This document shows positions 1-7,569 of a DNA stretch of 7,569 nt, piece after piece. The DNA lies in the IMG/VR virus record IMGVR_UViG_2657244940_000004; one strand, written 5' to 3'. The stretch comes from a virus (Duplodnaviria > Heunggongvirae > Uroviricota > Caudoviricetes). Both the position numbers and the translations under genes were made by a program. The notes beneath the pieces were generated by a model. That model was not told the origin of the DNA. It made no database searches and saw only the letters and a list, made by a program, of their open reading frames with translations. Positions within the stretch are counted from its first letter, which is position 1; the number at the start of each line of letters is the position of its first letter.

Positions 1-494
1 ATAAACATCCCGTAGGCATGGCCTGGTGACAGTGGAATAACTTTGAACATCTCTGTCGCCGGGATACCTTCCAGTACAGGCCAGAAAGAGCCATCATCAA
101 GCCCGAGATCGCGACGTTCGGTTGCCAGCATAATGAGATCGGCATATTTCACAGGCGTGCTCATAACAGGAGGTAACCCGTATTTCTCACGGATTACGGC
201 GTCTATTTTTTCTTCCATCCGTTTATAGTCAGGAAGAAGGCGTTTCAGTGGAGCTGGGATGTCCTGGCAATACGCTTCTGTTGCATCATGCATTAACGCT
301 TCAAAAGCAAATTCCTGCGGTACCAGCTGGCTGCAAAGCACCGCATGTTGGGCGACGCTGTAGAAGTGTGAAAGATGTCCTGCAAAGCGACAGATATTTG
401 AAAGGGAAACCGCGATATCGTTAATCACGATGTCGTCTTTATTTATCCTGTCATAATAAAAATGCTTCCCGGAAAAAGTTTTAATAAATGACAT
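1..494 (-). CDS. yfdR: HD-domain phosphohydrolase, YfdR-like (5'-deoxynucleotidase family); C-terminus lies outside the window
   Basis: Minus-strand translation from ATG (complement of 492-494) reads MSFIKTFSGKHFYYDRINKDDIVINDIAVSLSNICRFAGHLSHFYSVAQHAVLCSQLVPQEFAFEALMHDATEAYCQDIP... with no stop to position 1 (164 codons). It carries the H...HD metal-binding signature (GHLSH, LMHDATEAY) of the HD superfamily. GGAG lies 8 nt upstream of the ATG (rc of 503-506). Not in the ORF track because it runs off the edge. Symbol is from recall of the E. coli CPS-53 prophage protein, not a search. Confidence 0.8.
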   Translation of the reverse strand, partial: MSFIKTFSGKHFYYDRINKDDIVINDIAVSLSNICRFAGHLSHFYSVAQHAVLCSQLVPQEFAFEALMHDATEAYCQDIPAPLKRLLPDYKRMEEKIDAVIREKYGLPPVMSTPVKYADLIMLATERRDLGLDDGSFWPVLEGIPATEMFKVIPLSPGHAYGMF

Positions 495-588
495 TTTGTT
501 CTCCACTTTATATGCGCTGCACCGCGCTGAATTTTGGTTAAAGAAAACCCTCGCCATCAGGCGATTATTGAGTCAATTATGTTTCCAT

Positions 589-610
589 AAATGCCCCCGC
601 AGGGGCATTT
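589..610 (-). terminator. Perfect 9-bp stem hairpin (AAATGCCCC-CGCA-GGGGCATTT) between the yfdQ-like stop and the yfdR-like start; possible intrinsic terminator or attenuator
   Basis: Perfect inverted repeat 589-597 / 602-610 with a 4-nt loop, 13 nt downstream of the yfdQ-like stop on the minus strand. The following minus-strand sequence is only moderately U-rich (AUUUAUGGAAACAUAAUU), so this is not a canonical terminator. Confidence 0.35.
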
Positions 611-622
611 GCAGTAATGAAA

Positions 623-1447
623 TCAGGCGGTGAAAGTACCAATAAAGGTTTCTACTTTGCTGTCTTTAAATTTCTCAACAAGCAGATCACGAAATTCGTT
701 AGCCATTTCTTCCTGCACTGCTTCCAGCTGAATAATGCGCAGAACCAGTACAGGACGATCGCCAGTGATAATGCTGAGGCGTAATTTAAACGGACGTTCT
801 TTCAGGCCTTCAAACGGAACGCATTTAAATTCAAATACCACTGGCATAATGTCTTTGGTCTTCGCTTCGACAGACTCCATCAGGGAGCGTTTGCCGCTGA
901 AGTCATTATCTTCAAAATCAGCGGTCTGGTTTGCTTCAATCGTGATTTTACGGACTGCCGCAGCCGCTTTTGTTGCCTTAATAGCGTCACCATTAGCATC
1001 AAAGCCCACAAGATAGTCGGCCCAGTCTTCAATCCATTCTGCCAGTGACTTCTGGGAGTTACGCTCGCCGTTAACAGACAACAGAGCAGAGAACGGTGCT
1101 GTCTTTTTCAGTTTGAGTGTGGCGGTGTTATCTGCGTGACCTGGTTCACCAATAGTACCCAGGTTAAGCACACTGACGGCACGCATATTATCGGCATCGA
1201 TAAAGCAGCGGGTGCCTTCATCTGCAAGATCTTTAGAATAACGGGTAAAGTCATCGATGCTGGCAGTGGAAAGCGCACCACGGAAACGGAAGCGATTTAA
1301 ATTAAATTTTTCCAGATCATGAATGCGGAAATTCTCAGGCAATGCCACAGCATCGGCACCAATCTTACTGATAATTTCATTAACACCCTGAGCAGAAATA
1401 AGGGCATGGATTTGATTAATTGCGGTTGCGTCTAAGTTCTGAGACAT
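623..1447 (-). CDS. yfdQ: YfdQ-like prophage protein (DUF2303-type), 274 aa, function unknown
   Basis: 274-aa ORF with protein-like composition. GAGGA sits 6 nt upstream of the ATG (rc of 1448-1465). Length and N-terminus match my recollection of the E. coli CPS-53 YfdQ family. Sits between the yfdP-like and yfdR-like genes on the same strand. Confidence 0.85.
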
Positions 1448-1512
1448 AATAAGTCCTCACTATATTAAGATATTCAGTGATGAGATAAATAATCAGTTAA
1501 TTAAGAACGATA

Positions 1513-1875
1513 TTAATGACCTGCTGCGCGGAGTTTTCCGTCAGGTTCACCGGCAAGAGTCAGTAATTGTCCCTGGTCTTCCTGCAGAATAGTCAGGCGA
1601 CCACCTCGATTGACATACATCGGCGTTTCGGTGGTGTCTTCTTCGGAAATTTTCCCGCGGTTAGTCGGGCGAACATATGAGAGTTTGTGTTTGATTTTCA
1701 CACGGTTCTCATCAAACGGTTCGATGTCCAGATTGACCGAGACTTTACCTTTGTTTTTCGTGTTCATCACACCGGAAGCGACTTCACTGAGAACTGCGCC
1801 GAGTTTGGTTTCAAATACGCCGCCGTCCAGTTCTACGATAAATACCTGCACATCAGTACTGCGTACGCTAGCCAT
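1513..1875 (-). CDS. yfdP: YfdP-like small prophage protein, 120 aa; first gene of the leftward early operon
   Basis: The ORF track gives a 182-aa frame (1513..2061), but the N-terminal 62 codons are Cys/His/Arg-rich with no ribosome-binding site. The internal ATG at complement of 1873-1875 (MASVRSTDVQVFIVELDGG...) is preceded by GAGGAG 7-8 nt upstream (rc of 1879-1890) and gives a 120-aa product of normal composition. Confidence 0.7.
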   Translation of the reverse strand: MASVRSTDVQVFIVELDGGVFETKLGAVLSEVASGVMNTKNKGKVSVNLDIEPFDENRVKIKHKLSYVRPTNRGKISEEDTTETPMYVNRGGRLTILQEDQGQLLTLAGEPDGKLRAAGH

Positions 1876-2216
1876 TTTGCTGCTCCTCATCATATCGACC
1901 CTGCAAGGTCGGTTGGTTTCTCCACAAAACAGAGAAGAACACCTGCGGTGGCAGCCGCCCGGATGGATTGGGTTATGAGCCCGTCGTCCGGTGATGCTCT
2001 TCTCTGTTTTGTAAAAAGAGCGGTACCAGCCGGAAGCAAGTGTACAAACTGGTACCGCCAAAGCAGTGGCTGTTGTGGTGACCGGTGCTGATCTCCGGCT
2101 TGCGGTTATTTCAGACTCTCACGGGCGTTTAATTGCCCCGCCGAGCAGCTATTTTCCGCAATAGCTGCAATGTCTTTCGCGCATCAGCCTGCGCATTCAC
2201 CACAACTCTAAAAACA

Positions 2217-2269
2217 AATGTAGGATATCCAACATGTGAGTGTCAAGAGTTTATGTTGGTTATCCTACA
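2217..2269 (-). promoter_or_regulatory. PL-like leftward early promoter with OL-like operators
   Basis: Minus strand: -35 TTGACA (rc of 2241-2246), 18-nt spacer, -10 TACATT (rc of 2217-2222). 16-bp imperfect palindromes TGTAGGATATCCAACA (2219-2234, overlapping the -10) and TGTTGGTTATCCTACA (2254-2269, upstream of the -35). The 30-nt promoter core matches the PR core at 3021-3050 at 27 of 30 positions. Confidence 0.6.
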
Positions 2270-2286
2270 TAAAAAGATAGGCTCAT

Positions 2287-2312
2287 AAAAAAACCGGGGA
2301 TACCCCGGTTTT
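2287..2312 (-). terminator. Intrinsic terminator downstream of the repressor gene (analogous to lambda tIMM); flanked by A- and T-runs so possibly bidirectional
   Basis: GC-rich hairpin CCGGGG-ATA-CCCCGG (2294-2308) flanked by AAAAAAA (2287-2293) and TTTT (2309-2312). On the minus strand it reads CCGGGGUAUCCCCGG followed by UUUUUUU, about 20 nt past the repressor stop (2333). Confidence 0.6.
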
Positions 2313-2332
2313 GCGATAGTGAGGAAGATGTG

Positions 2333-2986
2333 TCAAAAATCCATTATTACTTGTTTGACAAGACCAACTATTCTGCAGTTCTCACCGCATTCAATAGTTT
2401 TATAGTTAGGATTTAGTGGGACGAGATACCTGTTCGGCCAGTCCTCAACAAATTTTTTGAGTGTCGCTTCTTGCCCACCATTGATATGGGCAACAACGAT
2501 TTTTCCGTTAATACACTCTGTATCAATAATATCTGGCTCTACGATAACGATAGAACCTTCTGGTATCGATGGTGAGCCGAGGGGATTGGTCATTGAATCA
2601 CCACGGACCCGTAGTGCAAATGCCATTTCTGATACAAGGGCGGTAGTATAAACCCACTCTTCAGCATCTTCTTTCCTGACACCAGGCTCCGTCATTGTCC
2701 ATGAACCCGCCTGAACCCACGAGATGAGGGGGACTTTTTTAACTGCGAATATTTCAGGTTTTAGATTTATCTTTGGTTCAGGCGAGCCTTTTCCGCTAAC
2801 AAGCCACAGAGGATCGCATTTAAGTGCGTTGGCTAGGGCTTGAAGGTTGGCTCCATTTGGTTGGTAGTCGTCCTTTTCCCATCCAGTAACCGTGACACGG
2901 TTCACACCAGTCAAATCAGCCAGTGCTTGTTGTGTCAGGTTCAGTTCTTTTCGCCTTTGGCGAATACGATCACTCATGTTCATCAT
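2333..2986 (-). CDS. cI: Prophage repressor, P22 c2 / lambda cI-like (N-terminal HTH_XRE plus C-terminal S24 LexA-type autopeptidase)
   Basis: N-terminal HTH (DRIRQRRKELNLTQQALADLTGVNRVTVTGWE). Ala-Gly cleavage motif VQAG in PLISWVQAGSW (lambda cI HVQAGMF, P22 c2 ISWVSAGQW). Catalytic Ser in RVRGDSM and Lys in GQEATLKKF. Aligns along its length with recalled P22 c2. Start chosen at the ATG of MMNMSDRIR (rc of 2984-2986), which has AGGA 8 nt upstream; the track's earlier ATG at 3010 would overlap the predicted PRM -10 and has no SD. Confidence 0.9.
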   Translation of the reverse strand: MMNMSDRIRQRRKELNLTQQALADLTGVNRVTVTGWEKDDYQPNGANLQALANALKCDPLWLVSGKGSPEPKINLKPEIFAVKKVPLISWVQAGSWTMTEPGVRKEDAEEWVYTTALVSEMAFALRVRGDSMTNPLGSPSIPEGSIVIVEPDIIDTECINGKIVVAHINGGQEATLKKFVEDWPNRYLVPLNPNYKTIECGENCRIVGLVKQVIMDF

Positions 2987-3050
2987 GTAGGCAATCCTAC
3001 CACATGCCAATGTAGGATTCTTGACATTGGCATGTTGGATATCCTACATT
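2986..3050. promoter_or_regulatory. OR-like tripartite operator with divergent PR (rightward, cro) and PRM (leftward, repressor)
   Basis: Three sites about 22-25 bp apart centre to centre: TGTAGGCAATCCTACC (2986-3001, overlapping the repressor SD and start), TGTAGGATTCTTGACA (3011-3026, half-site-like, contains the PR -35) and TGTTGGATATCCTACA (3033-3048, exact reverse complement of the OL site at 2219-2234, overlapping the PR -10). PR: -35 TTGACA 3021-3026, 18-nt spacer, -10 TACATT 3045-3050. Putative PRM on the minus strand: -10 TACATT (rc of 3009-3014) with a poor -35, as expected for an activator-dependent maintenance promoter. Confidence 0.65.
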
Positions 3051-3081
3051 TCTGCTTAACGTAATTTAACGGGAGACAGAA

Positions 3082-3279
3082 ATGCGGAAATCCGACGTGA
3101 TTAATTATTTCGGCGGAGTTTGTAAAACCGCCGAAGCCCTAGGTATTAAGCATCCGTCTGTTTCAGAGTGGCCTGAGATTATTCCTGAAGGCCGAGCGTA
3201 CCAGTTAGAAAAAATTACTAACGGGAAACTGAAAGTTGACGTGTCTTTATATCAAAAGACTAACAGTGCTGCGGCATAA
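3082..3279 (+). CDS. cro: Cro-like repressor, P22 Cro family (65 aa)
   Basis: MRKSDVINYFGGVCKTAEALGIKHPSVSEWPEIIPEGRAYQLEKITNGKLKV aligns with recalled P22 Cro (MYKKDVIDHFGTQRAVAKALGISDAAVSQWKEVIPEKDAYRLEIVTAGALKY). GGGAG sits 6 nt upstream of the ATG. The gene is divergent from the repressor and immediately downstream of PR. Confidence 0.85.
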   Translation: MRKSDVINYFGGVCKTAEALGIKHPSVSEWPEIIPEGRAYQLEKITNGKLKVDVSLYQKTNSAAA

Positions 3280-3306
3280 AAACACCACAGAAATGAGGAA
3301 TTAACC

Positions 3307-3885
3307 GTGGGTAAAGAACCTGAATGGAAAGTTGATAAACAACCAGCATGGCTGGTGGCAGCAATACGAAGAACGATTGCTGATTTACCTCATGGCTATG
3401 AGGAAGCAGCAGAAATTCTTGGTTTGTATAAATCTGATGATATCACCCCAGCAAAAGATCAATTGCATAACAGACTGCGTAGCGGTGGGGATCAAATTTT
3501 TCCACTTGAGTGGGCCATGGTTTTACAGGATGCCAGTGGTACCAGGCATGTAACAGATGCAATAGCCCGTCGTAGTAATGGGGTGTTTGTGCCGCTGGTG
3601 GTCATTGATGACATTGACAATGGTGACATTAATCAGCGGCTGATGGAGTCAATAGAATGGATTGGCAAGCATTCCCAGTACTTACGCAAGGCAACTGCTG
3701 ATGGAGTTATTGACCAAGCTGAACGCGAGCAGATCGAAGAGAACAGCTACCAAGTAATGGCGAAGTGGCAGGAGCATTTGACACTGTTATTTCGTGTTTT
3801 TTGTGCGCCGGAAAAGAGTAACGCCCGCGAGTGTGCAGCTCCGGGCGCCGTGGCGTGTCGTGACTGTGGAGAAACTAACGCATGA
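3307..3885 (+). CDS. Hypothetical early-right protein (192 aa); by position it could be a cII-type lysogeny regulator, unverified
   Basis: GTG start with GAGGA 8 nt upstream. Protein-like composition with acidic patches and a Cys-containing C-terminal tail (CAAPGAVACRDCGETNA). The stop overlaps the next ATG (ATGA at 3882-3885). I do not recognise a family from memory. Confidence 0.65.
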   Translation: MGKEPEWKVDKQPAWLVAAIRRTIADLPHGYEEAAEILGLYKSDDITPAKDQLHNRLRSGGDQIFPLEWAMVLQDASGTRHVTDAIARRSNGVFVPLVVIDDIDNGDINQRLMESIEWIGKHSQYLRKATADGVIDQAEREQIEENSYQVMAKWQEHLTLLFRVFCAPEKSNARECAAPGAVACRDCGETNA

Positions 3886-4484
3886 ACAGTTTAACGGCAA
3901 ATAACCGTTTGTCGCAACAGCTGGTGGTCAGTGTCGCTGCACACCTGTTGTTACGGCATGAATGCAGATTACCAAATCACCTGGCTGTAAGTAACCACAG
4001 AGAACTTTACCTGACTGTGGGGGGCGAGTTGTGCAGGAACTTAACCGCTGGTTTCGTGACGGAAGAGGACTTTATGTTCATGTTATTCGTTGGGAGCCAG
4101 AAACACAGCGCGTTATCTATCTTCGCAAAGACTACCAGCATGAGTGCTTTAGTCCTTTGTGGAAATTCAGGCGTGATTTTGTTGAGTGTGAAGGACCACC
4201 AGCATATTGATTCTGCAATTCCGGGACGTTACACTGCTCAGGCACCTTATAAAGCGGGTGCCGGGGGTCGCAGCCCGGAATTGTCAACGGCGATATATGA
4301 CGCGCCAGCGTCTTTTTTATCGTCCGCGCTCACGCACGCCAGAATTATGGTGGGCTGGGCAGGGGAGCCGAAAGGCTCGCCGGTCTCCGTTGACGCCGGT
4401 ACTGCGAACCCTGTTCAGTCTGCCACCAGTGAGTTTCGCAGCTCCGGTGGTGGAAGTTTTCCACAGTCAACGGAGGCTGCCATC

Positions 4485-5030
4485 ATGGCTACGATCCCAA
4501 CCCTCACTCAACCTGAAATTGCCATCGTTGATGGTCAGGCTGTTACTTCATCCCTGGCTGTTGCCAACTTCTTCTCCAAACGTCATGACGATGTACTGAA
4601 AAAGATCCGCACGCTTGAATGCTCTGCATCATTCACTTCCCGCAATTTTTCGGTGAGTGATTACACCGATTGCACAGGCCGCAAACTACCTTGCTATCAA
4701 ATAACCCGCGACGGCTTTGCGTTTCTTGCTATGGGTTTCACGGGTAAACGTGCTGCCCAGTTCAAAGAGGCATACATCAATGCCTTTAACCAGATGGAGA
4801 AACAGCTTTCAAATCCCTCTGTACTGAGCGACGTTGCACATAACGCCAGCGTTCTCTATTCCTACATTTCATCAATTCATCAGGTCTGGCTGCAGCAGCT
4901 TTATCCCATGTTGGCAAAAGCCGAATCCCCGCTGGCTGTAAGTCTGTATGACCGCATCAACGACGCGGCGCTACTGGCCAGTCTCATAAATTTGTCGCTG
5001 AACCCTTCAGAGGTAAGGGGGCGCAAATGA
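4485..5030 (+). CDS. rha: Rha-family phage regulatory protein (pRha domain), 181 aa from an internal start; the same frame is open upstream to 3882
   Basis: MATIPTLTQPEIAIVDGQAVTSSLAVANFFSKRHDDVLKKIRTLECSASF...YQITRDGFAFLAMGFTGKRAAQFKEAYINAFNQMEKQL matches the Rha signature (VTSS..VA..F.KRH..VL..I, TRDGF..L.MGFTGK.A..FKEAYI..FN.ME) recalled for this family. GGAGG sits 8 nt upstream of the ATG at 4485. The track ORF (3882..5030, 382 aa) would add 201 N-terminal codons of atypical composition. Confidence 0.85.
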   Translation: MATIPTLTQPEIAIVDGQAVTSSLAVANFFSKRHDDVLKKIRTLECSASFTSRNFSVSDYTDCTGRKLPCYQITRDGFAFLAMGFTGKRAAQFKEAYINAFNQMEKQLSNPSVLSDVAHNASVLYSYISSIHQVWLQQLYPMLAKAESPLAVSLYDRINDAALLASLINLSLNPSEVRGRK

Positions 5031-5251
5031 TCCGGAATATTTTCAAACGGTTTACCAATCATACTTTCCGTTGTCCTCGTCCGGGTCAGTGGTACACCAC
5101 GCCTGCAGGGCATGTTCTACGTGTTAGCCTGGTTGACCGTGAATGTCAGAAGGTGGTTTGTGAACCGCTGGGCCGTAATTACCGCGTCAGTATGCCGCTT
5201 ATAGCCTTTTGCTCCGGAAAAATGTTTAAGCGTCTGGGAGGTGTGGCGTGA
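5027..5251 (+). CDS. Small hypothetical protein (74 aa), start overlapping the rha stop
   Basis: The ATG at 5027-5029 overlaps the rha stop TGA at 5028-5030. A G-rich SD-like run (AAGGGGG) lies about 6 nt upstream. The product contains several Cys (FRCPRPG, CQKVVCEP, FCSG). No family recognised. Confidence 0.45.
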   Translation: MIRNIFKRFTNHTFRCPRPGQWYTTPAGHVLRVSLVDRECQKVVCEPLGRNYRVSMPLIAFCSGKMFKRLGGVA

Positions 5252-5472
5252 ACTGTTTTCAGGTTCGGTCATGAAAAAGTAACATATTCTATGCTGGAAC
5301 AGACCAATTTTGCATTCGCCGTCCAGGAGTTTGAGGGGAAAGTAGTCAGTGTTTACGCTCAGTCAGGGAAAGTGTGCAATGATAAACAACACGAAAGGAA
5401 TCGTAGTACATGGGCACCGCGATTCAATATTCAAGGAAAACACAATACAGCAATGTACTTGTACTGTTTCTA

Positions 5473-5754
5473 TTATTCTGGCGATTTCAATAAAGGCACT
5501 TGCTCGCGCTCTGTCATTTTCTGAAACTCTTCATGCTGCATTTCGATTTTCCTTCTAAGATCATAACTCGCATACCTGTTCTTTTTATGTATATCTATAT
5601 CTATTTTTGTGACGAGTTCAAACCACAATGTTCGCACTCCCCAGGCAGCGTTATGAAACATTTCCGCAACGGCTATAGAGTCTGTATTAACTGCTTCGGT
5701 CATGTAGTCGCTAATACGTTCAGCGGTAATTTTCGTTATTTCATCGTAATTCAT
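5473..5754 (-). CDS. Hypothetical protein (93 aa) in a low-GC segment; orphan cargo gene
   Basis: GGAGA sits 5 nt upstream of the ATG (rc of 5755-5770: GTAGGAGATAAA-ATG). Product has balanced composition ([47 protein letters not shown]...). The surrounding 5500-5860 is visibly AT-rich compared with the window. A 105-bp AT-rich gap separates it from the upstream toxin gene. Confidence 0.6.
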
Positions 5755-5859
5755 TTTATCTCCTACAAGATTATTTAATGGAATGAAAAATATCTGGCCT
5801 GATAATAATATTCCAGAATTAATATCTGCAGGCTATGTTAAGTTGTCCCCACACACAAT

Positions 5860-6135
5860 CTACCTGTTTTCTCGTGTGTGCCACAGGCGCAATACATAAA
5901 TAGTCTGGCCATTAAGTTCGTAACGGATTTCGTACTCGCCAGCAAAAATCCGTCTGACCTCCCTGGGTTCAAACTGAAACAACTGTTCTCCCATACGTGG
6001 ATGAGTTAACAGAATGACCGGTGCCTGTGTCAGGGATTGCACCGTTCTGGCGGCCGCAGGTTTACTGGCCAGCACCAGAAAATCATATAACCGCGCCAAA
6101 TCAGAAAGCGCCTTACTGGTCCACTTCAGTTCCAT
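5860..6135 (-). CDS. Type II toxin, ParE/RelE superfamily (91 aa)
   Basis: MELKWTSKALSDLARLYDFL...GEYEIRYELNGQTIYVLRLWHTRE follows the ParE/RelE fold pattern (N-terminal helices, C-terminal Y.I.Y......I.RV.H.R). Its ATG overlaps the stop of the upstream RHH gene (TGATG on the minus strand at 6133-6137). Confidence 0.85.
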   Translation of the reverse strand: MELKWTSKALSDLARLYDFLVLASKPAAARTVQSLTQAPVILLTHPRMGEQLFQFEPREVRRIFAGEYEIRYELNGQTIYVLRLWHTRENR

Positions 6136-6419
6136 CAGCGTGGCACCGGTAACGGATTGTCAGTACTGAGGCTGTCCGCCCAGGCCTGTACAGCCTGATG
6201 GTCGATAACCTGTCCGGATGTCACATCGTCCAGGGCTTCCAGCGTCAGGCGATTACGCTCCTCCTCCTGGGCAAGCCATGCAGAAAGCGCCTGTTTGATA
6301 ACCCAGCCCCGGGAGCGTTCCAGCCTGGCGGCCATCTGGTCGACTTTATCAGCCATAGGTAATGGCACATGCGCGGTAATGACTTTTGTTGCTTGTGCGG
6401 TATTGTTTTTCATTTGCAT
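6135..6419 (-). CDS. Type II antitoxin, ribbon-helix-helix (CopG/ParD-like), 94 aa
   Basis: Ribbon-helix-helix signature in VITAHVPLPMADKVDQMAARLERSRGWVIKQALSAWL, followed by an acidic C-terminal region typical of toxin-neutralising tails. Sits upstream of and overlapping the toxin. An alternative start at the third codon (ATG rc of 6411-6413) is possible. Confidence 0.8.
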   Translation of the reverse strand: MQMKNNTAQATKVITAHVPLPMADKVDQMAARLERSRGWVIKQALSAWLAQEEERNRLTLEALDDVTSGQVIDHQAVQAWADSLSTDNPLPVPR

Positions 6420-6432
6420 ATCCGATTAGTCG

Positions 6433-6474
6433 TTAATCATATTTAATCATAGTGATTACTTTCAGACGGAACAA
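6433..6474 (-). promoter_or_regulatory. Putative promoter and autoregulatory operator of the toxin-antitoxin operon
   Basis: Minus strand: -35 TTGTTC (rc of 6469-6474), 17-nt spacer, -10 TATGAT (rc of 6446-6451). A second TATGAT lies 10 bp downstream (rc of 6436-6441), forming a direct repeat TGATTAAATATGATTAA over the -10 region, the sort of site an RHH antitoxin would bind. Confidence 0.35.
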
Positions 6475-7321
6475 GGCAAATAATGCGCGTCAGCGCATGT
6501 AAGGCGGCATACGGTGGTTACATGTAGCACAGGTGTGAAACCGCCGAAGCCCGGCGTAAGCCGGTACATATTGATAGATTTCACCTTACCCATCCCCAGC
6601 CCTGCTAAGCCATACCCGCTTTCAGCCATGACAGAGCTTCTGTGCGCGGTCGGAGTGGTCCCGACGAGGGTTTACCCGAAGTCGGGGCGTATCTCCGCGT
6701 TAGCGGGCCGTCAGGGCCGCTTACGAGCGTGTACTCGATACGTCCAGCCAGAAGACTGGCAGCGATGACAATGTAGTTACAACATTCATAATTAAAAGCG
6801 ATGTTGTTCCCGCCCTTTGGGCGGGGGCGGCCTCGCTTTTCAGTTATGAGGGGTGGGCACGGTGCTGCGTTTGTGTGGTGTTTTTATTCCTGATGTCTTT
6901 TTGCTGTGGTTTCAGAACGGTGAGGTTCGGGGCCCGCGCGTCAGCGTGGGAGGTGCATATCAGTCTGTCCACAGGACAGGCATTGAACAGGTTTTCTTTT
7001 TAAATGGAAGTAATTAAGTAGTTTAAAGGAAATACAGTACTGGAGTTTAAAAGAAACATTGCACCCTGTAACGCCTGCGGCTGGCGCTTTATAGCATTAA
7101 CGGTTGTAACCTTATGGAGAAGTCCCTTGCAGTTAAATGTGGATAAACAGAATTACCCGTCTGTGAGACGTGTTTTGCGTGAAAAACAGGGGGAGCATGA
7201 TGAGCCGGAAGGCAGATGATGAGGCTGTTTTTTGTGTGCTGTGCTGCTTTTTTGTGCGTCGCCGGGCTTCAGACGTGCGGAAGCCTCCGGCGCAGGCCGG
7301 ATTATTCAGATGAGGTCAAAC

Positions 7322-7569
7322 TCAGGGTGAGGCAGTGGCCAGCCGTGTGTAGTTGTTGTTCCGCGACATTATCATTCGTTCCTTCACGCGACGGTCGATT
7401 TCGCGCTTCACGGCCTCCAGGCTTCCGCGGAAACGCCCTTCCGCGATTTCACGTGTCAGCTGCCGTTTCACCAGGGTGACAATGTCCTGACGGGTCCTGC
7501 CTGCATCGCGGCGCGCACGGGCACGTTTCATGCCGTGGGACTTAAGCTCTGCCTGATAACTGCGGAAAC
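7322..7569 (-). CDS. Basic protein of unknown function, partial; frame open to the window edge, N-terminus may lie outside
   Basis: Minus-strand frame is open from the window edge to the stop at 7322 (...FRSYQAELKSHGMKRARARRDAGRTRQDIVTLVKRQLTREIAEGRFRGSLEAVKREIDRRVKERMIMSRNNNYTRLATASP). The internal Met at 7531 has no SD. Arg/Lys-rich and helical-looking, suggesting nucleic-acid binding. A 5-bp hairpin (7287-7300) follows the stop. No family recognised. Confidence 0.45.
   Translation of the reverse strand, partial: FRSYQAELKSHGMKRARARRDAGRTRQDIVTLVKRQLTREIAEGRFRGSLEAVKREIDRRVKERMIMSRNNNYTRLATASP

Follow-up and report, generated by a model that had tools for sequence, protein, structure and literature searches.

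A hairpin-rich segment of a phage-plasmid mosaic reads as the origin region of an IncFII-family replicon

The 7,569-nucleotide stretch of DNA analyzed here (the window) contains near its right edge 0.7 kb that are rich in hairpins. We conclude with high confidence that positions 6483-7321 are the cis-acting origin region of a theta replicon from the IncFII family (R1/R100 type) and follow repA directly on the minus strand. The hairpin-rich 0.7 kb is a textbook origin region, of a kind already known from IncFII-type enterobacterial plasmids, and neither a novel RNA nor a prophage element. The reading is based on homology, the positions of motifs, the pattern of conservation, and fold statistics; beyond these, we infer which stem-loops serve as the priming site and that one hairpin terminates transcription. 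Among the candidates named in a preliminary description of the DNA, a replication or transfer origin-like element was the right one, and it corresponds to the oriR region of an IncFII-family replicon. For annotation, the value of the assignment is that a conserved stretch free of open reading frames (ORFs) can be read as replication signals acting at the DNA level: a DnaA box, an AT-rich origin, a Ter site, and priming stem-loops. The features of the region are as follows.

6483-6572, plus strand: candidate G4-type primase-dependent priming site (G site) with three stem-loops, 6483-6498, 6503-6545, and 6551-6564
6581-6958, minus strand: repA4-equivalent frame, a disrupted pseudo-ORF that overlaps the variable spacer, the GC-rich hairpin, Ter, and the invariant block
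6640-6769, plus strand: near-invariant stem-loop cluster, delimited by conservation and fold
6770-6792, minus strand: predicted Tus-binding Ter site AATTATGAATGTTGTAACTACAT, with the core GAATGTTGTAACTA at 6774-6787
6794-6840, no strand assigned: GC-rich hairpin AAAAGCGA...CCCGCCC TTT GGGCGGG...TCGCTTTT, an inverted repeat shaped like an intrinsic terminator on either strand
6845-6958, no strand assigned: variable spacer
6959-7146, minus strand: oriR equivalent, 188 bp, AT-rich
7138-7146, minus strand: DnaA box TTATCCACA, at the edge of the origin that faces repA
7147-7321, minus strand: 175-bp spacer between the repA stop codon and the DnaA box, located where R1 has its CIS element
7322-7569, minus strand: 3' end of repA, the IncFII-family replication initiator, with the stop codon at 7322-7324; the gene runs off the right edge

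Homology and layout of the origin region

A 911-bp query covering positions 6420-7330 matched 6484 records, found in 4161 of 5426 complete E. coli genomes. The matches in E. coli occupy 7442 places, 7384 of them on plasmids and 58 on chromosomes, and an 'incFII family plasmid replication initiator RepA' is annotated beneath the match in all E. coli matches listed. In PLSDB, the region matches more than 5000 plasmids from Escherichia, Klebsiella, Shigella, and Salmonella, and positions 6483-7569 are 97-99% identical to hundreds of E. coli plasmids. A megablast search of the same query against 50,697 phage records gave zero matches, and a distant blastn search of positions 6500-6800 against phages returned chance matches only, none of them to a microvirus.

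In a pairwise alignment, plasmid R100 is collinear with positions 6483-7569 of the window, from the C-terminus of repA through oriR to 'repA4', and the similarity ends at about 6483. This collinearity shows that the minus-strand ORF which runs off the window on the right is the 3' end of repA, and the hairpin-rich block therefore occupies the classical origin region that follows repA. R100 (NR1) and R1 share with the window the order of the repA stop codon, a spacer of about 175 bp, the DnaA box, and a 188-bp AT-rich origin, followed by a repA4 region that contains ter and by conserved stem-loops that extend up to the module boundary. The conserved parts of R100 and the window are 84-91% identical. 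On the far side of the boundary, however, the window carries a RelE/ParE-RHH pair, whereas R100 and R1 carry tir and pemIK. Homology between plasmids also breaks off abruptly at about 6483, which defines the module boundary. The preliminary description had considered an att remnant at a cargo junction; the boundary is there, but nothing points to an att site.

This layout agrees with published accounts of the replicon family. An origin with the DnaA box TTATCCACA downstream of repA1 is a trait of IncFII plasmids (PMC2762410). The ori has been placed between repA1 and repA4, the repA4 region of R100 holds the ter sites, and a transposon screen found the repA4 region to be required for stable maintenance (PMC4398462). 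The oriR of R1 is 188 bp long, and DnaA-box1 within it is TTATCCACA (PMC5883639).

The window holds only the 3' part of repA, and copA, tap, and the 5' part of repA fall outside it. The 3' end is about 80% identical to repA of R100, and the differences are distributed over codon positions 1:2:3 as 6:9:34, which is a coding-like pattern. The 175-bp spacer that follows the stop codon is 84% identical to that of R100, and it is conserved among IncFII-type plasmids but not in IncI1 and IncK plasmids. The CIS element, whose position the spacer occupies, is said to be a rho-dependent terminator needed for the action of RepA in cis. The DnaA box, 175 bp from the repA stop codon, is the sole match in a scan of the window for TTATNCACA, and it is invariant in 12 of 12 aligned plasmids, IncI1 and IncK replicons included.

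The 188-bp size of the oriR equivalent was adopted from oriR of R1 (PMC5883639). The segment is 88.8% identical to the part of R100 that follows the DnaA box, and its GC content is 0.41-0.46. The sharp fall in GC content after 6960, pointed out in the preliminary description, was reproduced, with a change from about 0.57 to 0.41; the individual values are 0.55-0.58 for 6501-7000, 0.46 for 6901-7100, and 0.41 for 7001-7200. The oriR equivalent contains direct repeats of AGTTTAAA(G/A)GAAA with a spacing of 24 bp. Exact copies of TCNTTTAAA at 7046-7054 and 7022-7030 are the only two in the 7.5-kb window, and a copy with one mismatch is located at 6999-7007. Repeats of this kind in oriR are reportedly contact sites of RepA.

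The spacer between the GC-rich hairpin and the oriR equivalent (6845-6958) is the variable part of the region. Identity to R100 drops to 62% here, whereas the sequence is essentially that of pCS14-1 and pC60-108, and the allele is common to IncI1/IncB-O/IncK-type plasmids and not to those of R100 type. In an alignment of 12 plasmids, the R100-type sequences carry a second, inverted Ter (TTTAGTTACAACAC) in this spacer, whereas the window is without TTTAGTTACAACAC. A scan of the window for Ter cores detected no second Ter, only the single site at 6770-6792.

Ter site, hairpins, and the repA4 frame

The core of the predicted Ter site matches GNRNGTTGTAACTA with zero mismatches, is the sole match in the window, and includes the conserved G-C pair at position 6. 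The AATTATGAATGTTGTAACTA of the site is invariant in 12 of 12 plasmids. An GTTGTAAC octamer at 7107-7114 on the plus strand was considered as a Ter site and rejected, because it violates the flanking consensus, position 6 included. The 12-nt core ATGTTGTAACTA is identical in the window Ter and in E. coli TerB, and both have the conserved G at position 6; the flanks differ, so that 18 of 23 positions are equal. TerB is part of the chromosomal fork trap, whereas the Ter of the window is a lone site beside a plasmid origin.

To calibrate the orientation of the site we used TerB, whose sequence on the MG1655 plus strand is AATAAGTATGTTGTAACTAAAGT. The forks blocked by TerB are the clockwise ones, and at TerB these run toward higher coordinates. 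The window Ter reads 5' to 3' on the minus strand, from 6792 to 6770, and by analogy with TerB it would thus block forks that come from the repA/oriR side and move toward lower coordinates. Such an orientation agrees with what has been published on R1, where the single unidirectional fork is halted at ter/Tus near oriR, and without this stop rolling-circle forms and instability arise (PMC4999828).

The region was folded as single-stranded DNA, with 200 dinucleotide shuffles as the control. The plus strand beats the shuffles at 6480-6600 (z -2.6, 3 of 200 shuffles as good; minus strand z -1.3) and at 6630-6770 (z -3.2, 1 of 200 as good; minus strand z -1.7). The fold of 6793-6846 reaches z -4.9 on the plus strand and -4.2 on the minus strand, and none of the 200 shuffles is as good. 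The dense hairpins reported earlier are thereby upheld: their density modestly exceeds the chance level, and conservation of the stems extends across plasmids. Three of the individual hairpins were found exactly as described, namely ATGCGC-GTCA-GCGCAT at 6483-6498, CCGGC-GTAA-GCCGG at 6551-6564, and CCCGCCC-TTT-GGGCGGG at 6809-6825. The fourth, the GGCGG...CCGCC pair, is present and encloses TACATGTA (6519-6526), but its arms are at 6503-6507 and 6541-6545, slightly to the left of the end at 6548 given before.

The GC-rich hairpin at 6794-6840 gives a terminator-like match on the plus strand in a terminator scan. In the 12 plasmids, 96% of its alignment cells are paired, and at two of the pairs both partners differ in 4 plasmids, which have G-C in place of C-G. 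The probable role of the hairpin is to terminate transcription in both directions and insulate the origin. The stem-loop cluster at 6640-6769 consists of GTCCCGAC...GTCGGGGC, AGCGGGCC-GTCA-GGGCCGCT, and others. In the bins covering 6630-6719, the majority fraction is 0.97-1.0 among 12 plasmids of four replicon types, and helices 9-13 of the cluster are invariant throughout the 12 plasmids. The cluster may belong to the priming region or to a stability determinant. The near-invariant block of which it forms the right-hand part, 6483-6769, ends exactly at 6483.

Folds that beat their shuffled controls, together with a few compensatory changes, are also what would be expected if the block encoded a structured non-coding RNA, either a small RNA or a cis-regulatory element, with the hairpins as RNA helices. 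A promoter-like pair of hexamers at 6765-6792 on the plus strand and the terminator-like hairpins point the same way, but the counts of promoters and terminators are inside the expectation from shuffles, and most helices are invariant, which makes covariation uninformative. A covariance-model scan, as proposed in the preliminary description, identified no relevant family in the region: at the gathering score, Rfam has no match in 6400-7330, and at E ≤10 it yields only chance-level matches to snoRNA models, eukaryotic and archaeal, and to enterovirus models, the best being an archaeal snoRNA model with 17.3 bits against a threshold of 38. A search for tRNA and tmRNA genes detected none. Furthermore, the conserved landmarks are DNA sites, the DnaA box and Ter being known protein-binding sites and the AT-rich origin accompanying them, and a role of such DNA in origin function and maintenance is documented (PMC4398462, PMC5883639). 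The structured RNA suggested earlier is therefore highly improbable, and the block is better described as origin DNA.

No credible ORF had been seen in the region, and this holds: the ORFs of at least 40 aa in 6480-7200 are short (42-84 aa), and those that were scanned have no family match. An NCBIfam scan of six sequences, five ORFs and a 92-aa open stretch of the repA4 frame, identified no family, and a Pfam scan of three of these six gave no match. In R100, the repA4 ORF is intact and encodes 128 aa. In the window, the equivalent frame has in-frame stops at codons 6 and 25 and another one near the C-terminus, and among 12 plasmids the ORF is intact in three and broken in nine, the window's own frame being broken.

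The intact 128-aa ORF of R100 could mean that the region is mainly a decayed repA4 gene in which the hairpins are incidental. Database annotation leans toward such a view, as the equivalent stretch of pOHT76-1_2 is labelled by PGAP as a frameshifted RepA4 pseudogene, and pEntH10407 is annotated with two truncated repA4 ORFs (PMC2762410). However, decay predicts divergence, and the block is near-invariant across IncFII, IncI1, and IncK replicons. Identity to R100 is 91% in 6490-6769, which is higher than the 80% in the essential repA gene, despite a frame that is broken in 9 of the 12 plasmids. The variable columns of repA4 are spread over codon positions 1:2:3 as 42:34:34, with no third-position bias, in contrast to the 6:9:34 of repA, and the scans against NCBIfam and Pfam provided no protein-family match. 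The broken frame, the absence of codon-position bias, and an identity above that of repA indicate conservation at the DNA level. The 'repA4' ORF is very likely a by-product of conserved DNA signals and not a gene, and we consider it extremely unlikely that gene decay is the main explanation. The decayed gene put forward in the preliminary description is thus matched by the annotation of a sister plasmid but not by any sign of protein-level selection on the repA4 ORF; similarly, the frameshifted homolog that had been named there as evidence against a structured element exists as the annotated RepA4 pseudogene, but the annotation fails to explain the region.

Candidate priming site and proposed mechanism of replication

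The three stem-loops at 6483-6572 probably form, on the plus strand, the G site for the start of the leading strand; we hold this assignment with moderate confidence, and it draws partly on the literature. The G site of R1 is reportedly located about 380-400 bp downstream of oriR and is said to be a primase-dependent start of the leading strand. Transferred to the window, this distance would presumably put the site at about 6567-6589, and the candidate is about 390-400 bp past the distal end of oriR. The array of three stem-loops is the consensus fold of 13 plasmids and includes one compensatory A-T/T-A pair. In the first hairpin (6483-6498), the symmetry is preserved across plasmids by paired one-base insertions and deletions, and the plus strand of the candidate site outfolds the minus strand.

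The array resembles oric of phage G4, the prototype of primase-dependent origins, which likewise has three stem-loops on the template strand, with (C)TACTG following 2-3 nt on, as it does in the relatives of the window. In G4 oric, the primer starts at CTACTG after the stem-loop GGCGAAAGCCGCC. A similar hairpin, GGCG-(T/A)AA-GCCG, is shared with G4 oric, and the distance from the ATG..GGCGG motif to CTG is 73 nt in R100 and 74 nt in G4. Short motifs collinear with G4 oric are present (ATGTGGGGCGG versus ATGTAAGGCGG; GGCGAAAGCCGCC..CTACTG versus GGCGTAAGCCGG.TACTG), while the local alignment score to G4 oric is 28, compared with a shuffle mean of 29.4, and the sequence similarity is therefore not statistically significant. 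The 365 G4-like matches are all at least 90% identical and provide no diversity for a covariance model. The two sites also differ in setting: G4 oric serves complementary-strand synthesis in a single-stranded phage, whereas the candidate site would start the leading strand of a duplex plasmid.

After the last stem-loop, the window reads TAC-ATA (GCCGGTACATATTG), whereas its relatives read TACTG (GCCGGTACTGATTG in 18 of 25 related loci). The CTG triplet at which primase would start is present in these 18 of 25 loci and absent from the window, which has CAT at 6567-6569. Among 5426 E. coli genomes, the CAT variant occurs in one other plasmid only, the complete 68-kb pABW_A19b. Since pABW_A19b is a complete replicon with CAT, the change from CTG to CAT is evidently tolerated. 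An alternative candidate for priming is provided by the invariant stem-loops at 6650-6725, which are followed by a conserved CTG at 6756-6758; this candidate fits if the 400 bp are counted from the DnaA box.

The steps of the proposed mechanism are drawn from the literature on R1 and R100. RepA, made in cis, would bind the AT-rich oriR equivalent (about 6959-7146), and host DnaA would bind the box at 7138-7146 and, together with RepA, open the origin and load DnaB. Unwinding would run toward lower window coordinates and expose the plus strand. The DnaG primase would then recognize the plus-strand stem-loop array, most likely that at 6483-6572, and the leading strand would begin. The single fork would circle the plasmid, re-enter through repA and oriR, and be stopped by Tus at Ter (6770-6792). 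Because the leading strand would start beyond Ter, the returning fork would be halted just before it displaces the 5' end of the nascent strand, and rolling-circle over-replication would be prevented. The hairpin at 6794-6840 would complete the arrangement as the two-way terminator insulating the origin.

A point against this mechanism is that Ter in this orientation, if occupied by Tus, should also impede DnaB when it first travels from oriR to the site of priming.

Mosaic of phage and plasmid DNA

The window is made up of two kinds of DNA as a mosaic. In positions 1-5243 it matches, at 95-98% identity, the early region of lambdoid/Stx phages, with the genes yfdR/yfdQ, an S24 repressor, cro, YmfL, and Rha, and with the Rfam isrK and C4 RNAs at 4242-4430. 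Positions 5257-7569 are 99% identical to a plasmid backbone in which a 77-aa ORF, a 93-aa ORF, a ParE-family toxin, an RHH antitoxin, the origin region, and repA follow one another; I-complex conjugative plasmids of the IncK2/Z and similar types carry this backbone. The prophage or lysogen context that the preliminary description had assumed does not apply to 5257-7569, as this segment is plasmid backbone, and the features to the right of about 5257 are best read in a plasmid context. The plasmid p3-S1-ZIM-01-A (typed IncK2/Z, with an I-complex backbone and a RepA of the 289-292-aa IncFII-family type) is 99% identical to the window over 5257-7569. Plasmids of this type have the same order as the window, with an 88-aa, a 77-aa, and a 93-aa ORF, the ParE toxin, the RHH antitoxin, the origin, and repA; their left neighbor, however, is a ProQ/FinO-yagA-parA backbone, in contrast to the lambdoid early region of the window.

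The crossover between phage and plasmid DNA is at about 5257-5262, within a 5-7 nt microhomology, TTTC(A/G)G. Searches of E. coli genomes, PLSDB, and INPHARED gave no record that spans the junction, and patterns of 37 and 23 nt across it had zero matches among contigs from viruses, GTDB genomes, and JGI metagenomes. The 51-aa ORF that crosses the junction was looked up as an exact sequence, with nothing on record, and a look-up of the 77-aa ORF gave ordinary plasmid contexts only. The junction may have arisen by a rare natural recombination or as a chimera of the assembly. The rare CAT variant, the second Ter missing from this allele, and the phage/plasmid junction, which is outside the hairpin region, are minor residual points.

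With lambdoid DNA next to plasmid backbone and a junction absent from all six collections searched, it is conceivable that the region is a genuine oriR by descent but inactive here, as a captured replicon fragment beside phage DNA, of the sort that might sit in a chromosome, cointegrate, or mis-assembled contig. The 58 chromosomal places among the 7442 E. coli matches and the change from CTG to CAT at the predicted primase start are consistent with such a capture. However, the segment is 99% identical to the resident replicons of complete plasmids, every landmark is intact, and the CAT variant is also present in the replicon of a complete 68-kb plasmid; we regard an inactive fragment as unlikely. 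If the junction is real and the replicon complete, a lambdoid phage or plasmid-prophage could have exchanged its replication module for a RepA-oriR replicon of the IncFII/I-complex kind. We consider this exchange improbable; if true, the region would serve as the origin in a phage-plasmid of a new kind.

The join falls where the downstream early genes of the phage itself would come next.

Junction between phage and plasmid DNA

The window is composed of two parts that meet at an abrupt junction:

5243-5262, phage/plasmid junction, inside a TTTC(A/G)G microhomology

The sequence to the left of the junction (window 1-5243) is the early region of a lambdoid phage, and that to the right (window 5257-7569) is an I-complex/IncFII-type plasmid backbone. 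No record containing the junction was found in the E. coli genome, PLSDB, or INPHARED collections, and a scan of viral, genome, and metagenome contigs for the junction patterns returned zero occurrences. The junction could be that of a natural recombinant or of an assembly chimera.

Both halves of the window are present in a single strain, E. coli OHT76-1, on separate plasmids (pOHT76-1_1, NZ_CP135245, and pOHT76-1_2). The lambdoid segment has a match with 95% identity on the 373-kb plasmid, and the origin segment has one with 97% identity on the 113-kb plasmid. The position of the lambdoid segment in OHT76-1 shows that such phage DNA resides on plasmids, where it could recombine with them.

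Modules of the plasmid origin

The origin region of the plasmid half includes a spacer that separates oriR from a conserved hairpin:

6845-6958, spacer, allele common to IncI1/IncK plasmids

In contrast to R100-type IncFII plasmids, the spacer allele of the window lacks the second inverted Ter (Tus-binding) site. The conserved block 6483-6956 is also located downstream of a 343-aa RepA, of unrelated length, in IncI1/IncK replicons, which indicates an exchange of modules. The predicted primase start triplet, CTG in 18 of 25 related loci, is replaced by CAT in the window (6567-6569). Among 5426 complete E. coli genomes, just one has this variant, on plasmid pABW_A19b.

Putative regulatory elements of the two halves

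The following repeats and Rfam RNAs lie in putative control regions:

2215-2275 and 2990-3050, recurring inverted motifs that resemble GTAGGATATCCAACAT
4242-4318, plus strand, isrK (Rfam, 58.7 bits)
4343-4430, plus strand, C4 antisense RNA (Rfam, 78.8 bits)
6433-6451, TTAATCATA in two tandem copies, 10 bp apart

The minus-strand RHH antitoxin gene (6135-6419) has the TTAATCATA pair directly upstream, adjoining a promoter-like site (6436-6465, also on the minus strand). This tandem repeat probably serves as the operator for the RHH/ParE toxin-antitoxin operon.

In the lambdoid module, isrK and C4 adjoin each other, upstream of and within the long open reading frame 3882-5030, which is the Rha/antirepressor region. 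Their joint position at this reading frame suggests that the antirepressor is under antisense control of the P1/P7 type. The GTAGGATATCCAACAT-like motifs, spotted only by eye, lie on either side of the divergent gene pair made up of the S24 repressor and cro, and are presumably the operators of the phage immunity region.
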